33,538 bases of DNA, from positions 1 through 33,538 of the forward strand of contig CAXBPH010000047.1 of assembly GCA_963977445.1 (NCBI GenBank), given 5' to 3'. Below, piece after piece: positions 4,947 through 12,541 of the stretch (its first letter is position 1; every line of letters begins with the position of its first letter). The notes under the pieces are model-generated. The model had not been told where the DNA came from, ran no database searches, and saw only the letters and a list, made by a program, of their open reading frames with translations. The position numbers were made by a program, and so were the translations under genes. The stretch comes from an uncultured bacterium (GTDB lineage: Bacteria; Hydrogenedentota; Hydrogenedentia; Hydrogenedentales; JAEUWI01).

Positions 4947-7007
4947 CTACTCCGTTTCAATACGCTCGAGCGCATAGGTGCCAGAATATAGGCCCAAGCC
5001 CACAATATCCAGCTCAAAATGCTCCCCAACCACATCAATGATTACCTGATTTTTCTCGGTAATTGTATAGCGGCCTTTAATCGTGCCATTGACGAGCAAG
5101 ACGTTCTCCGGCTGAAAATGTAAACGGAATTGTCCGCCCGACCAGATCGTTCCGATGAGGGATTCAGCGTTCAGGGTCGGTCCCTGGGCTTCCGTCGCAG
5201 TTCGGGCTTTCATTTCCGCCATGCGCTTTTCCCGCCGGACGCGCCAGCGTTCCAGGGCTTCTTCGATGCGACCAACGGGAACGCTGTAGGTCATATAGCC
5301 GATGAACATCTCTTCAAAGGTCTGATCACCGAAGCCAACGGTGTCGGACGGGTCAGGATTGGCCGGGTTCTGGGCGGAGTTATCAAAGGCACCTTCACAG
5401 AGAATGACCGTATCGGCGGGGAGGATTTTGGGCGCAGCGAGTTGATAGGTGGTCTGCCAGTCGAAGTTATAGCGGGGCACCGAAAGCAGGACTTCCGATT
5501 CGCCAGAGGGGTAGAGGGCCGTGTATCGGAAGCGGCTGCCGCGATAGTGCATGTGGGGCGACATGCCGTAGAGGGTGACCTCGCCTGGCCAAACTCGATG
5601 ATCTTCTTCCACCGGAAAGTCACGGACTCCCGGAGGTATCTTAAAGCTGCCATTGAAGGCGGCCCGCGTTACGAGCTGGTGGGTCGGCGTTCCGTCATAA
5701 AAATAGAGGCCCAGAGCTGATTGGTCCGTCTCGGCCTTACCGGTGGTCACATAGTGGATTTGAAACAGAAAGGTCGAGCCAGCAGGAACGAACTTGGCCG
5801 TGCCCGGGGGAAAGGGTTCCTGTCGACCGCCGGGAACGAATCCCGCGAAATAGCCGCTGGCACCTCCATCCACCTCGGGTTCAAGTTGTTTCTTTTCGTC
5901 AGGATACTGAATGAATACGAGGGCATGATGCACGACCTCGGGGTTACCGGGTCGTATCTCAATGGCCCGTAGCCAGGTGTCTTCATGCAGTCCGGAAGGA
6001 ACGGAAATAAGCTGATACTCCACAACACCCTCGGGTGGGATTTCCTGGGCCGACGCCATGGTGAGGAGCTTGTCGGGCGTGCCATTGTCCCATTCCTGTG
6101 GTGCGCGCTCAGGCAGATCGGCGAGGGGGTCCGGTCCCTCACCCCGGGGTGTACCTTGATCAATCCAGGCCAGCAAGCTGCGTTTCTCTTCGCCAGAGAG
6201 GGAAAAATCGTTGCGGAAGGTGCCAATGTGGGGATCGGCACTCCAGGGCGGCATCCGGTCGGTGAGAATAACTTCCCGGGTCATTTCGGCCCAACCACGG
6301 ACCTTTTCATAGCGATTGAAGGCGAAGGGCGCCGCACCATTTTCTTGATGACAGGTCACACAGCGCCGAATCAGGATGGGCGCAATATCCTTTTCGTAGG
6401 TCAGGGAGTCGAAGGGCGGCGCAATAGGTAAGGCAGGGGATTCGGGAATGGCTACCTCGGTCGGTACGGGTGTGCGAAAGAGAGAAGACATTTTTTCGGC
6501 CTCTGCGGCGATGGTGCTCCGGAGGGTGGTGCGCCATCCGTCGGTTGCGATCATGAGCAAGGTGCCGTTCTGGGTGACCGCCAGCGCCCCGGTGACCAAC
6601 TGGTCCTGGTCCATTAAGATGGGGAGATTGGTCGCGTCCCGGATAGCCGGATCGGCCATGCGCGCATCGTCGCGGGCCATTCCTGGACTGGTATTCACGA
6701 TGAAATGCCGCATGCTGCTGGTGGATGTTGCATCGGCAAGGGCCTGAAAGGTGCGCAGCGACGTCGGCGTGTCCTCCAGCCGAATATCGCAAAACAGGAG
6801 GGCCAAGGTCTGTACATCGGCGTTTCGATAGAGCTCAACCGCACGTCCCTCGTGATCCAGCAAGGCGAAATTTGGAACCGCTTGCCCCGTTGCGCAGGTG
6901 TTGGAGACCGTCAACAGGCAGAGCAGCAGGGGGAAGAGGTGTCGGCCTGCGTCTGACCAGCAACCTGAATTGCATGGGCGACTACCGTGGAAATCCAGCA
7001 TGTGCAT
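4947..7007 (-). CDS. Exported redoxin-like + cytochrome c + copper type II ascorbate-dependent monooxygenase-like fusion protein
   Basis: Signal-like hydrophobic stretch, VPNFALLDHEG redoxin-like start, CVTCH heme motif plus MPPW, then VVHH, QIHY, PHMH and EEM motifs; start uncertain (7046/7007/7001). Confidence 0.8.
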   Translation of the reverse strand: MHMLDFHGSRPCNSGCWSDAGRHLFPLLLCLLTVSNTCATGQAVPNFALLDHEGRAVELYRNADVQTLALLFCDIRLEDTPTSLRTFQALADATSTSSMRHFIVNTSPGMARDDARMADPAIRDATNLPILMDQDQLVTGALAVTQNGTLLMIATDGWRTTLRSTIAAEAEKMSSLFRTPVPTEVAIPESPALPIAPPFDSLTYEKDIAPILIRRCVTCHQENGAAPFAFNRYEKVRGWAEMTREVILTDRMPPWSADPHIGTFRNDFSLSGEEKRSLLAWIDQGTPRGEGPDPLADLPERAPQEWDNGTPDKLLTMASAQEIPPEGVVEYQLISVPSGLHEDTWLRAIEIRPGNPEVVHHALVFIQYPDEKKQLEPEVDGGASGYFAGFVPGGRQEPFPPGTAKFVPAGSTFLFQIHYVTTGKAETDQSALGLYFYDGTPTHQLVTRAAFNGSFKIPPGVRDFPVEEDHRVWPGEVTLYGMSPHMHYRGSRFRYTALYPSGESEVLLSVPRYNFDWQTTYQLAAPKILPADTVILCEGAFDNSAQNPANPDPSDTVGFGDQTFEEMFIGYMTYSVPVGRIEEALERWRVRREKRMAEMKARTATEAQGPTLNAESLIGTIWSGGQFRLHFQPENVLLVNGTIKGRYTITEKNQVIIDVVGEHFELDIVGLGLYSGTYALERIETE

Positions 7008-7183
7008 AATCTGCTCCGGTTTGTATAGGGCATGGTAAAAATACAACAGGCCCGCCGACAGGCGCTGGGCTCAGGTTAGACCGGGAAAGTTGGCCCGGGG
7101 TTGCGCGGAGGAAGCCTCAACATTGATTCGGGATTCGTCGTGGTGTCGTGTTAAGATAGGCCTGAAAGTGGGGCGTTTGATAA

Positions 7184-8087: not shown

Positions 8088-9578
8088 ATGAGACTGCAGG
8101 ATAATACCACAGGAATTGACCGCTCTCACCCACTTGCCGTGGTAGTGGTGGGTGCGTCTGGCGACCTGGCGTTGAAAAAAATATACCCCGCGTTGTTTGC
8201 GCTATTTTGCCAGGACCTGCTGCCGAAGCAGTTTCATATTGTGGGCTTTGCCCGCAGCGAAATGAGCAACGAAGATTTCAGGAATCGTGTGGAAGAAAAA
8301 CTGACCTGCCGCTATGTGCCGGGCCAGCAATGCGATGAACTGATGAGGGCCTTTCTTAAGAATTGCACCTATATGTCGGGCAACTACAATAGCGCCGAAT
8401 CGTATCGCAAGCTCCACACAGAGCTGGAGCACATCAAAACCGAAGGCCAGGAAAACCGTGTTTTCTATATGGCCATTCCTCCCTTTCTGTTTCTGGAAGT
8501 GGCCAATGCCCTCCACGACGCCGAGCTGGTTACGCAGGAAGAAAAGCGTGGCTGGAGCCGTGTGGTAATCGAGAAGCCTTTCGGTAGCGACCGAGAGTCT
8601 TCCGATGCCTTGACCGAGAGCATGCGCCATGTATTCAGTGAAGAGCAGACCTACCGGATTGATCACTATCTGGGCAAGGAAGTCATACAGAATCTTCTGG
8701 TACTTCGCTTCGCCAACTTGATCTTCGACCCCATCTGGAATCGTACCCATATCAAGAACGTGCGTATTTCCTGGACGGAGAATCTAAGCTTGCAGGGGCG
8801 GTCCGGCTACTTTGACCAATACGGCATTATCCGTGATGTTATGCAGAACCACCTCTTACAGATGGTCGCGTTGGTCGCCATGGAACAGCCGGTTGCGTTG
8901 AATTCAACCTATGTTCGCGATGAAAAAGTTAAAGCACTTCGTGCCATTAAGCCGCTGGCACTTGCCGATGTCGTAGTGGCCCAATATGGCCCCGGCTCGA
9001 CCGACGGCAAACAGCACTTTGGCTATCTCCAGGAAAAGGGGACGCCTGAAGGATCGATTACGCCAACCTATGCGGCCGCTGCGCTCAAGATTAACAACCG
9101 TCGCTGGGATGGCGTGCCCTTTCTCATTCGTGCGGGAAAGGGCCTGGGCGATTCTAAAACCGAGATTCGTATCCGTTTCCAGGCCATGCCGGGCAATATT
9201 TTTGCCAAAGCGGCCAAAGGTCTGCCGGAGAACGAACTGGTGATTCAGGTGCAGCCCGATGCAGGGTTGACCATGCGGATCGTTAACCGGGTTCCGGGGC
9301 TGGGAATTCGCCTCGATGAGACCAAACTCGACTTACGCTATTCATCGGCCTTTGAAGGCGCGATTCCCGATGCCTATGAATCACTGATTCTGGACGTGAT
9401 TCAGGGCGATAAGAGCCTGTTTATCCGTGCTGACGAACTTGAAGCGGCCTGGGATATCTTCACACCGGTTCTCCATGATCTGGAAGCCAAGCATGTGGAG
9501 CCCGAGAGCTATGAATTTGGAAGCGAAGGCCCGGAAGCCGCGGACGCCCTCGCCGCACGCTTTGGCGCCAAGTGGTAG
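8088..9578 (+). CDS. zwf: Glucose-6-phosphate 1-dehydrogenase (plastid/eukaryote-like sequence type)
   Basis: GASGDLA, EKPFG, RIDHYLGKE, GIIRDVMQNHLLQ, RWDGVPFLIRAGK, PDAYE. Confidence 0.98.
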   Translation: MRLQDNTTGIDRSHPLAVVVVGASGDLALKKIYPALFALFCQDLLPKQFHIVGFARSEMSNEDFRNRVEEKLTCRYVPGQQCDELMRAFLKNCTYMSGNYNSAESYRKLHTELEHIKTEGQENRVFYMAIPPFLFLEVANALHDAELVTQEEKRGWSRVVIEKPFGSDRESSDALTESMRHVFSEEQTYRIDHYLGKEVIQNLLVLRFANLIFDPIWNRTHIKNVRISWTENLSLQGRSGYFDQYGIIRDVMQNHLLQMVALVAMEQPVALNSTYVRDEKVKALRAIKPLALADVVVAQYGPGSTDGKQHFGYLQEKGTPEGSITPTYAAAALKINNRRWDGVPFLIRAGKGLGDSKTEIRIRFQAMPGNIFAKAAKGLPENELVIQVQPDAGLTMRIVNRVPGLGIRLDETKLDLRYSSAFEGAIPDAYESLILDVIQGDKSLFIRADELEAAWDIFTPVLHDLEAKHVEPESYEFGSEGPEAADALAARFGAKW

Positions 9579-9655
9579 TACTTGGTACACCGTGAAATGT
9601 ACGTGACCTCGCCCGCCCCATCGGGCAGCGAGGCTGAAACCTGGAATATCGTAAA

Positions 9656-10324
9656 ATGACTATTAACGTTCGTGATTTTGATTCTAAAGATGCCCTGCTT
9701 GCTGAAGTGGAGGCGTTGATTCGCTCCACCCTTTCCAAATCCTCCGAGCGGGAATACGCCCTGATGGTGTCGGGGGGGAATACCCCCTTGCCTGTGTACG
9801 CCGCAATTGCCGCCGACCCCATCGAAGCGTCACCCCAAGCCTATCTGGCCTTTACGGATGACCGGTATGTACCCATCGATTCTCCCGACAGCAACTTCGG
9901 GAATGCCCGCGCCATGATTGAGGCGGTCGGCTTGGCCGAGCGCACCATACGCATTAACCCGGATCTCGATATAGAAGCCTGTGCCGCCCGGTATGACGCC
10001 GATTTGGCGGCTTTCCTGGCCCGTGGTGCATCCATCCCTGTAGCGCTGCTGGGCCTTGGGGCAGACGGTCACACGTGTTCGCTATTTAATGACACGGATC
10101 TGGCCCGCGCGGAGAATTGTTTAGCAGCGCCCGCCTACAAGGAAAGCCCGCCGGACCGTATTACGGTGAGCCCGAAATTGCTTGCCCAGGTAGGTGAAAT
10201 TATATTCGTGGTGGCCGGCGACGACAAGGCCGAGATGATCGATGCCTTAATTAACAACCCCGATTCCATAACGGCTGGCAAAGCTGTTTCACAATGTGCG
10301 TCCGTTTCCCTTTGGCGGGTCTAG
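9656..10324 (+). CDS. pgl: 6-phosphogluconolactonase
   Basis: SGGNTP, DDRYVP...DSNF, LGLGADGHTCSLF, RIT; directly after zwf. Confidence 0.92.
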   Translation: MTINVRDFDSKDALLAEVEALIRSTLSKSSEREYALMVSGGNTPLPVYAAIAADPIEASPQAYLAFTDDRYVPIDSPDSNFGNARAMIEAVGLAERTIRINPDLDIEACAARYDADLAAFLARGASIPVALLGLGADGHTCSLFNDTDLARAENCLAAPAYKESPPDRITVSPKLLAQVGEIIFVVAGDDKAEMIDALINNPDSITAGKAVSQCASVSLWRV

Positions 10325-11518: not shown

Positions 11519-12541
11519 ATGAATTGGAGAATCAGGTTTATGAAATTCTGGCCAGCAGGTGCCGCGCGCCTCGCAGAATTGGTACTCGGTTTGACCTACC
11601 TGACGGCAGCGATGCTGAAGGCAGTCGATATCAACGCCTTCCTGCCGCAGATACACGCCTATCAGATAGTCAGTTCGAGTAGTCAACTCGTTGCCATCGC
11701 CCTGACCGCCCTGGCCCTGGAAACGGCGTTGGGCGTGTGCATGGTGCTTGGGACGCCCCGGCGAAACCTGGTTTTCGGGCTCGGCGCCGCCATGTTGTGC
11801 TTTTTTACGGCTGTCATTGTGTATGCCTGGCAGGTCAATGGCCTTGAAGATTGCGGCTGCTTTGGTAAAGTTAAGTTTACCCCGCCCCAGGCTATCGGTA
11901 AGAATCTCGTCATGTTGGCCCTGACGGGGTTGGCCTGGTATGGCCTGGTGTGGCGGACGAAGAATCCCGAACCCATTCGGGGAGGCGTGTTGCGCATGGT
12001 TTCTGCCGTCATCCTGGCGGCAATCGTATGCGTGGCGGTTGTGCCGCAACTGGGAACTACCGAGGTAATTGAGGTGCCAACGACACCTGGTGGCGGGGGC
12101 GAAGCGACGCCCAACGAGCCTGTGGGGCCTTTTTCGGGGTATGTCATCCAATCTGACTACGGAGACACCTTCGATCTCAGCAAAGGAGACCATCTGGTGG
12201 CCCTGCTGAGCATGACCTGCGATCATTGTATGGATTCGGTGCCTCAGCTCAATGAATTTGCCTTTGACAATACCCTGCCCCCCTTGGTTGCGATATGTCT
12301 GGAGCCGGAAGAGGGCAGCATGGCCGAGTTTAAAATGATTACCCAGCCCCAGTTTCCCCTCTTTTCCATTGGCGACAAAGGATTAAAGTTCTTCCCCTTG
12401 TTGGAGACCGCATCGAGTCCGCCACGGTTGGTTCACGTCCGCGATGGGGTAACGGTGCAATCCTGGGACGGGGAAATGCCCGATTATGCGACACTTGTAG
12501 AGGCCCTTTCGAGCGCAGGATTTGCGCAAAGTGAGAAATAA
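11519..12541 (+). CDS. MauE/DoxX-family membrane protein fused to a thioredoxin-like CxxC domain
   Basis: About 5 TM helices with the DCGCFG signature, then a soluble domain with SMTCDHC and a distal PP. Confidence 0.8.
   Translation: MNWRIRFMKFWPAGAARLAELVLGLTYLTAAMLKAVDINAFLPQIHAYQIVSSSSQLVAIALTALALETALGVCMVLGTPRRNLVFGLGAAMLCFFTAVIVYAWQVNGLEDCGCFGKVKFTPPQAIGKNLVMLALTGLAWYGLVWRTKNPEPIRGGVLRMVSAVILAAIVCVAVVPQLGTTEVIEVPTTPGGGGEATPNEPVGPFSGYVIQSDYGDTFDLSKGDHLVALLSMTCDHCMDSVPQLNEFAFDNTLPPLVAICLEPEEGSMAEFKMITQPQFPLFSIGDKGLKFFPLLETASSPPRLVHVRDGVTVQSWDGEMPDYATLVEALSSAGFAQSEK

Follow-up and report, generated by a model that had tools for sequence, protein, structure and literature searches.

A putative thioredoxin-operated thiol switch in a bacterial glucose-6-phosphate dehydrogenase, in register with the regulatory cysteines of plastid isoforms

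Introduction

Redox inactivation of plastid glucose-6-phosphate dehydrogenase (G6PDH or G6PD; Zwf in bacteria) is a textbook example of regulation, commonly seen as an adaptation to sharing a compartment with the Calvin cycle. A zwf gene in a 33,538-nucleotide stretch of DNA from an uncultured Hydrogenedentota bacterium (assembly GCA_963977445.1, contig CAXBPH010000047.1; the whole stretch is called the window hereafter), whose product, P0001, carries the cysteines Cys74 and Cys82 in an LTCRYVPGQQC motif, raises the question of whether the switch behind this inactivation belongs to plastids alone. Plastid G6PDH is the one classical thioredoxin target that reduction turns off (PMC10351500); according to PMC11432348, its Cys149–Cys157 disulfide activates the enzyme and reduced thioredoxin f1 deactivates it. 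Here we ask whether the bacterial pair corresponds to the plastid pair, how widely it is kept, where the enzymes that carry it fall in the G6PD tree, and what might operate it. On the evidence of alignments and trees, an intrinsic thiol switch on this type of Zwf is a well-founded hypothesis.

Results

The window encodes a eukaryote-like glucose-6-phosphate dehydrogenase

The open reading frame (ORF) at 8088..9578 on the forward strand is stop-free and encodes the 496-residue P0001. Profile searches place it in the zwf equivalog TIGR00871 (576.6 bits, cut-off 400.6) and find the Pfam domains G6PD_N (210.3 bits) and G6PD_C (366 bits). In an alignment of 41 sequences (A1), residues G22, A23, S24, G25, L27, R56, E162-K163-P164-F165-G166, R190-I191-D192-H193, K197-E198 and H255 are invariant; the named motifs of this enzyme are the dinucleotide-binding GASGDL, EKPFG, the substrate motif RIDHYLGKE and the catalytic histidine. 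Judged by its sequence, P0001 is an NADP-type glucose-6-phosphate dehydrogenase of a 'eukaryote-like' clade found in the Planctomycetes–Verrucomicrobia–Chlamydiae (PVC) group and Hydrogenedentota. It lacks a transit peptide, its Rossmann motif starting at residue 22 of 496, and its cysteines are at positions 41, 74, 82 and 93. The best match in the PDB is human G6PD (7zve, 2bh9, 6e08; 452 bits over residues 17-494), against 262 bits for the Leuconostoc enzyme; the human protein has no cysteine at either position of the pair, and in that alignment the human segment shows none. The host genome (7.1 Mb in 464 contigs, 94.2% complete), whose nearest named relatives are Candidatus Hydrogenedentota metagenome-assembled genomes, yields a single zwf match, the window gene. 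The strings cited in the original prediction (LTCRYVPGQQC, FLKNC, NRVPGLGIRLD, IPDAYE, LFIRADELEAAW, YEFGSEGP and LAARFGAKW) all occur in the translation, and the codons of Cys74 and Cys82 begin where it placed them, at 8307 and 8331.

The cysteine pair aligns in register with the plastid regulatory disulfide

The Arabidopsis plastid isoform P0350 (576 aa) carries LTCRIDQREKC with Cys149 and Cys157, preceded by Arg131 in GYART and followed by Cys168 as the next cysteine. R56, C74, C82 and C93 of P0001 align in register with R131, C149, C157 and C168 of P0350, and the spacings from the arginine to the first cysteine, from the first to the second and from the second to the next are 18, 8 and 11 in both proteins, which puts Arg56 26 residues before Cys82. 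In the window, all on the forward strand, the codon of Arg56 (in GFARS) lies at 8253..8255, those of Cys74 and Cys82, the first and second cysteines of the putative regulatory disulfide, at 8307..8309 and 8331..8333, and that of Cys93 at 8364..8366. Populus P2 repeats the spacings of 8 and 11 with cysteines 175, 183 and 194 (PMC6128849), Cys93 corresponding to the last of these and, like Arabidopsis Cys168, lying outside the plant regulatory disulfide. The L-T-C-R-x6-C block is ungapped in a 79-sequence L-INS-i alignment, where it is common to the bacterial clade, six named red algae, three green algae, five land plants and Paulinella; Ricinus, Sarracenia, Selaginella and the red algae have the same C-x7-C register as Arabidopsis. 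The spacing claimed for plant plastidic enzymes in the original prediction is therefore confirmed by alignment with named isoforms, and the cysteines fall exactly on the experimentally defined pair. We are more confident that Cys74 and Cys82 are homologous to Cys149 and Cys157, and of the distribution of the pair, than of any function assigned to them below.

The pair is a restricted feature of the family. In the 79-row alignment, neither column shows a cysteine in cytosolic eukaryotic G6PD (that of Drosophila, Hartaetosiga and Closterium among others) or in the eight outgroup rows of ordinary bacterial Zwf. The pair is also missing from all 15 actinobacterial loci, in agreement with the assertion that typical bacterial Zwf is without it. 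The counterpart of Cys93 is also present in many cytosolic eukaryotic enzymes, implying that this cysteine is not specific to the switch.

The plant pair is functionally well defined. As described in PMC6128849, the poplar cysteines sit on an exposed loop guarding access to NADP+, the disulfide affects where Arg131 lies and how NADP+ is positioned, and the Populus P2 mutants C175S and C183S reach less than 20% of the wild-type Vmax and are no longer redox-regulated. An AlphaFold2 model of P0001 (mean predicted local distance difference test score, pLDDT, 86.7; predicted template modeling score, pTM, 0.86) has a helix at 61-71, a nine-residue loop at 72-80 that carries Cys74 (block pLDDT 74) and a second helix at 81-90, with Cys82 on the first turn at its N-terminus. 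This predicted loop agrees in position with the exposed one of the poplar enzyme.

The pair is kept across six bacterial phyla

To count the pair, the 120 best homologues and the query were pooled with the named genome loci into 184 bacterial-clade rows, among which only identical strings were merged, so that near-duplicates remain and some proteins are counted twice (e.g. P0031 and L025). Of these rows, 169 have both cysteines and 11 have none of the two (a fragment is among the 11), while three have the first alone and one has the second alone. These sequences are otherwise only ~47-90% identical, so retention of the pair in 169 of 184 rows is far beyond chance, and the ratio of 11 rows with neither to four with one alone implies that the two cysteines are mostly kept or lost together. 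Position by position, Cys74 is found in 172 rows, Cys82 and Cys93 in 170 each and Cys41 in 156; 136 rows have an x7 spacer, with x8 in another 25 and x4 in five. Among the best 120 homologues plus the query, Cys74 is present in 117 of 121 and Cys82 in 115 of 121.

The motif occurs in 55 of 80 named genome loci, or, if only non-actinobacterial loci in which the region is covered are counted, in 55 of 63; those without it are the 15 actinobacterial loci, at 36-40% identity, and ten others, two of which are fragments lacking the region. Its carriers belong to six phyla (Hydrogenedentota, Omnitrophota, Verrucomicrobiota, Kiritimatiellota, Lentisphaerota and Planctomycetota), with labels that include Kiritimatiellia, Lentisphaerae/Victivallales and Planctomycetaceae, and a few bins are labeled Nitrospirales. 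A regular expression for the motif matched 14 of 140 full-length 50%-identity representatives, the query and P0041 included, and the sole match in an ordinary Zwf looks spurious. The pair is thus well conserved in orthologues, and the suggestion that the switch is peculiar to this lineage does not hold, since the pair spans at least six bacterial phyla.

Among 121 genomes sampled from the phylum, 93 had a Zwf match; the best match was at least 55% identical, i.e. of the window type, in 53 and only 36-42% identical, i.e. of the ordinary type, in 40. The genomes with the ordinary type only are mostly in one Hydrogenedentota family (f2), and two genomes, G100 and G112, have both types (for example G100:C414:3304-4764 and G100:C468:2473-3954). 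The two types, as distinguished by sequence identity, point to replacement or transfer within the phylum.

A three-cysteine loop, C-x4-C-x2-C (e.g. CRYGPCDHC), without a counterpart of Cys93, was found in L011, L023, P0052, P0075, P0077 and P0093; this variant may form a different disulfide or bind a metal.

The pattern of conservation also bears on a different explanation, in which the cysteines serve the structure of the loop, a metal site together with Cys41 and Cys93, or sensing by S-thiolation or persulfidation, and reduction switches nothing. All four cysteines are conserved at 85-93%, the three-cysteine loops of L011, L023 and several metagenome proteins would fit such a role, and the hosts are likely anaerobic. 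However, the pair is homologous to residues experimentally shown to form a regulatory disulfide, and it is usually lost as a unit, with both cysteines missing in 10 or 11 rows versus one missing in four. Moreover, plant enzymes have no counterpart of Cys41, the position being tyrosine in at least 12 named plastid-type rows (plant, red-algal and Paulinella), and the plant counterpart of Cys93 is outside the disulfide (PMC6128849). We consider a role of this other kind unlikely.

The bacterial clade is favored as the sister of all eukaryotic G6PD

The phylogeny was inferred with IQ-TREE under LG+C20+F+G4 by the posterior mean site frequency (PMSF) approach from 79 rows and 459 columns, leaving out the columns of the trait itself (positions 72-94); supports are given as ultrafast bootstrap / SH-like approximate likelihood ratio test (SH-aLRT). 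Ordinary Zwf splits off at 100/99, and an unnamed metagenome protein, a Lentisphaerae protein and a Spirochaetaceae protein follow as the next three bacterial branches in turn. The remaining rows form a joint clade (99/97) of a 27-row bacterial group that includes P0001 (97/95) and 41 eukaryotic rows (100/99). Within the eukaryotes, a cytosolic group (89/85) stands opposite a second group (89/83) made up of Acrasis, the green plastid isoforms (100/99) and the red-type isoforms together with Paulinella and chlorarachniophytes (100/95). A quick IQ-TREE PMSF tree and a FastTree tree are compatible with this result; the latter did not resolve how the eukaryote-like group branches at its base, and the IQ-TREE PMSF trees took its place.

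The favored reading of the tree is that the bacterial clade with P0001 is the sister of all eukaryotic G6PD, plastid and cytosolic together. That P0001 is an ordinary bacterial Zwf whose cysteines are there by chance was rejected as an explanation on three counts: the best structural match (human, 452 bits versus 262 for Leuconostoc), the 100/99 split and the conservation of the pair. In the phylogenetic sense, P0001 is not 'plastid-type', as the original prediction had called it, since its clade joins the eukaryotic enzymes as a whole (99/97 for the joint clade, 100/99 for the eukaryotes). Nor is a special relation to the plastid isoform, as sister, donor or recipient, favored by the position of that isoform inside the eukaryotes, although this part of the prediction survives to the extent that a joint clade is not rejected.

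Such a relation would follow from a specific transfer, in which the plastid isoform and the bacterial clade are closest relatives to the exclusion of cytosolic G6PD, the gene having passed from a bacterium to an algal ancestor or from an alga to bacteria, and the pair is a derived trait shared by these two alone. A tree forced to group the bacteria with the green plastid and red-type isoforms was 9.23 log-likelihood (lnL) units worse and was not rejected by the approximately unbiased (AU) test (p-AU 0.346). The two groups share the cysteine pair, the LTCR context and a C-terminal tryptophan; the bacterial clade is 48-49% identical to plastid isoforms versus 45% to cytosolic ones; and one move into Archaeplastida would call for fewer losses than a paralogue that disappeared from every other eukaryote. 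Against this, the careful tree puts the plastid isoforms inside the eukaryotes (100/99) and the bacterial clade, monophyletic, outside them (97/95), the quick tree agrees, and the small difference in identity could be explained by slower evolution of the plastid isoforms. PMC11976288 assigns all eukaryotic G6PD to one orthogroup of the last common ancestor of eukaryotes (LECA) and derives plastid copies generally from duplication and retargeting of nuclear genes. The direction from alga to bacteria is further disfavored by the six phyla that carry the pair and by the next outgroups, which are bacterial (Spirochaetaceae and Lentisphaerae). We therefore regard a specific transfer as improbable.

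With the bacterial clade as sister of all eukaryotic G6PD, the distribution of the trait on the tree is most simply explained by an origin of the pair on the stem of the joint bacterial and eukaryotic clade, its retention by most of the bacteria and by the plastid-targeted isoform of Archaeplastida, and its loss from the cytosolic isoforms; secondary losses in the chlorarachniophytes and several Hydrogenedentota lines are the simplest account of the remaining absences. Independent gain of both cysteines in the bacteria and in the plastid isoforms would also account for a trait that needs at least eight changes on the tree. Redox control of cyanobacterial G6PDH did arise by a different route, through OpcA (PMC11648896), and the title of Wendt et al. 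1999, which we cite from a reference entry only, claims functional convergence between cyanobacteria and plants. But the changes counted are mostly scattered absences inside pair-carrying clades, the two groups do not differ in register, in spacing to the arginine or Cys93, or in the flanking L-T-C-R, and they are neighbors in the tree; convergence is accordingly the least credible of the alternatives, and we consider it very improbable.

Several eukaryotic sequences stand out in the tree. P0131 of Paulinella micropora (719 aa) is a red-algal-type G6PD with the pair and an N-terminal extension of ~230 residues, and is sister to Porphyridium (99/96); the Paulinella chromatophore arose independently of plastids, and the placement may reflect transfer from red algae or prey, or contamination. 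P0141 of the chlorarachniophyte Amorphochlora amoebiformis (854 aa) and P0142, an unnamed MMETSP transcript (1114 aa) that groups with it, belong to the red-type clade, have lost both cysteines and are probably fusions. P0187 of Carpediemonas membranifera, a metamonad that lacks a plastid, has a cysteine pair at the same place with a longer spacer and groups (95/87, on long branches) with P0139, an unnamed 465-residue protein carrying the typical bacterial LTCRYVPGESC. The Carpediemonas pair could be a retention in a plastid-less eukaryote or a separate transfer.

Candidate redox partners in the host genome and a dsbD-zwf arrangement in relatives

The host genome encodes two thioredoxins over the cut-off, at G000:C402:2026-2313 and G000:C83:23137-23430, one thioredoxin reductase TrxB at G000:C24:17807-18730 (380 bits) and one 6-phosphogluconate dehydrogenase (gnd). 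OpcA (PF10128) had no match in the 94.2%-complete genome, with the Synechococcus, Deinococcus and Corynebacterium controls all matched, and control of the OpcA type was rejected on this ground. The absence of opcA between zwf and pgl, pointed out in the original prediction, thus extends to the genome as searched; according to PMC11648896, cyanobacterial G6PDH is without the pair and the disulfides are in OpcA. The large subunit of ribulose-1,5-bisphosphate carboxylase/oxygenase (RuBisCO) also had no match in the genome; the futile-cycle rationale tied to CO2 fixation is therefore inapplicable, and plastid-like avoidance of such a cycle was rejected.

Outside the window, a scan of 122 neighboring ORFs in 43 related loci revealed a full-length dsbD (DsbD_N, DsbD_TM and a thioredoxin-like domain) in 10 loci, directly upstream of zwf and co-oriented with it: L028:4283-5965, L029:4348-5979, L030:4344-5978, L036:4255-5979, L049:4025-5611, L051:4044-5795, L052:4176-5831, L054:4192-5841, L058:4157-5980 and L069:4231-5856. 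In six of the ten, the gap between the two genes is -4 to ~+10 nt. All ten adjacent Zwf proteins carry the cysteine pair, under the labels Lentisphaerae, Verrucomicrobiota, Kiritimatiellia and unclassified, and they are only 52-74% identical to one another, implying that the linkage is old. pgl often lies 3' of zwf in these loci, and the arrangement looks like a conserved dsbD-zwf-pgl unit. DsbD takes electrons from cytoplasmic thioredoxin, so the unit would tie this type of Zwf to thioredoxin turnover. Two single loci have further oxidative-stress neighbors of this type of Zwf: a Fe/Mn superoxide dismutase after zwf (L034:7603-8331), and a Fur-family regulator after zwf and pgl (L055:8206-8619).

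In the window, the gene that follows zwf on the same strand is pgl, encoding 6-phosphogluconolactonase (9656..10324, forward strand; Glucosamine_iso 130.5 bits; TIGR01198 120.2 bits, slightly below its cut-off of 124.45). The 77-nt gap between the two genes (9579-9655) contains no terminator-like site that we could find, and zwf and pgl are probably co-transcribed; pgl is immediately 3' of zwf in 16 of the 43 related loci. The gene order AmiA-like, zwf, pgl, DUF481-like is identical in the close relatives L001 and L003-L005, and L025 has the AmiA-like gene upstream of zwf with no pgl or DUF481 match found downstream. Two genes past pgl, the forward strand encodes a membrane protein (11519-12541) with a MauE domain (61.8 bits) and a CDHC motif in its C-terminal part, which matches PDB thioredoxins at E 0.2-0.25, not significantly; the protein may act as an envelope thiol-disulfide oxidoreductase. 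Near zwf in the window, no redox partner was established among the AmiA-like gene upstream, the DUF481-like gene past pgl and the MauE protein with its insignificant thioredoxin match. On the reverse strand, a 699-residue ORF (4947-7046) has a CVTCH motif (CxxCH, haem-c-type) and no Pfam match at E 0.01.

Discussion

The explanation towards which we lean, by a narrow measure, is that the pair is an ancestral thiol switch operated by thioredoxin and working in the bacterial enzyme as it does in plastids. The oxidized form, with a Cys74–Cys82 disulfide, would be the fully active enzyme, and reduced thioredoxin would open the disulfide and lower the activity. In a heterotroph whose genome gave no RuBisCO match, we infer a feedback homeostat instead of day/night control: NADPH from Zwf and Gnd would feed thioredoxin reductase, and whenever thioredoxin is drained, by oxidative stress or by electron export of the DsbD type, the disulfide would persist or re-form and the oxidative pentose phosphate flux would rise. 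Such feedback between NADPH supply and the redox state of thioredoxin is a more likely purpose than the avoidance of a futile cycle.

Several observations weigh against an ancestral switch. The trait needs at least eight changes on the tree, and the basal split of the eukaryotes has only the supports of 89/85 and 89/83 given above. The scenario requires either two early-eukaryote paralogues with many losses or a deep duplication. Both cysteines have been lost in several Hydrogenedentota (L019, L040, L042, L045, L046 and L048), variants with C-x8-C (25 rows) or with C-x4-C and an extra cysteine (five rows) exist, and the row counts contain the near-duplicates mentioned. Cys41 and Cys93 are almost as conserved as the pair (156 and 170 of 184 rows), so a metal site or other thiol chemistry is possible. 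The dsbD synteny is restricted to one PVC subclade and absent from the window. Finally, the hosts of the clade are often likely anaerobes with a strongly reducing cytoplasm, in which the disulfide might rarely form.

A broader proposal joins these lines into one history: the switch would have been present in a PVC/Hydrogenedentota-like donor of eukaryotic G6PD, would have passed into early eukaryotes, would survive among eukaryotes only in the plastid isoform, and would still work in non-photosynthetic bacteria as an NADPH/thiol homeostat, in some PVC bacteria within a dsbD-zwf-pgl operon for the export of reducing power. It is put forward tentatively, as somewhat short of an even chance.

The kinship of the bacterial clade to eukaryotic G6PD is already published, and what is new here is the putative switch and its distribution. 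Planctomycetota-Verrucomicrobiota have been named as potential donors of LECA G6PD (Santana-Molina, Williams, Snel & Spang 2025, Nat Ecol Evol, PMC11976288). Neither the regulatory cysteines nor Hydrogenedentota came up when the main text of that paper was searched by term and its sections and supplements were consulted, its supplementary trees and discussion lying outside that search; the supplementary orthogroup label, 'G6PD_K00036-LECA-B-U', is silent on plastid copies and cysteines. We found no report of plant-type regulatory cysteines in a bacterial G6PDH in open-access papers and preprints, the primary papers on the plant cysteines being covered by citation only, and none of a dsbD-zwf operon in the open-access papers and preprints. 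The plastid-homologous pair and its spread over six phyla thus appear to be undescribed.

If the reading holds, its consequences reach beyond this locus. The pair occurs, conserved and in register, in non-photosynthetic bacteria of six phyla whose enzymes are the closest bacterial kin of eukaryotic G6PD, which makes an origin of the switch before plastids likely. The bacterial enzymes are soluble and simple and have no transit peptide, and they could serve as models of how the switch is built and works; crystals of a plastid isoform were still lacking in 2018 (PMC6128849). A further prediction of our reading is that PVC, Hydrogenedentota and Omnitrophota bacteria control their NADPH supply post-translationally, at a point that has not been described so far.

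The tree recovers the same sister relation of bacteria and eukaryotes as PMC11976288, and the present clade adds Hydrogenedentota and Omnitrophota to the PVC phyla. The actinobacterial loci differ in being only 36-40% identical and in lacking the pair. In the cyanobacterial OpcA system, the same pathway step is under thioredoxin-dependent thiol-redox control as in the plastid type, but the cysteines are in OpcA, whereas in P0001 they are in the enzyme itself and no OpcA was found in the genome.

The closest comparison is with the plastidic P1/P2 isoforms, such as Arabidopsis G6PD1 (Cys149–Cys157) and Populus P2 (Cys175–Cys183). Unlike these, P0001 falls outside the plastid-isoform clades of the tree, and its host, unlike the plastid setting, yielded no match to RuBisCO. 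The named plastid isoforms have ~90-190 extra N-terminal residues, which place their first regulatory cysteine at 149-213 in contrast to Cys74 in P0001; Cys41 of P0001 is without a plant counterpart, and the position of plant Cys119/145 is Leu44. Nevertheless, at ~46-53% identity, P0001 and the plastidic isoforms have the same fold, the same catalytic motifs and the same cysteine register.

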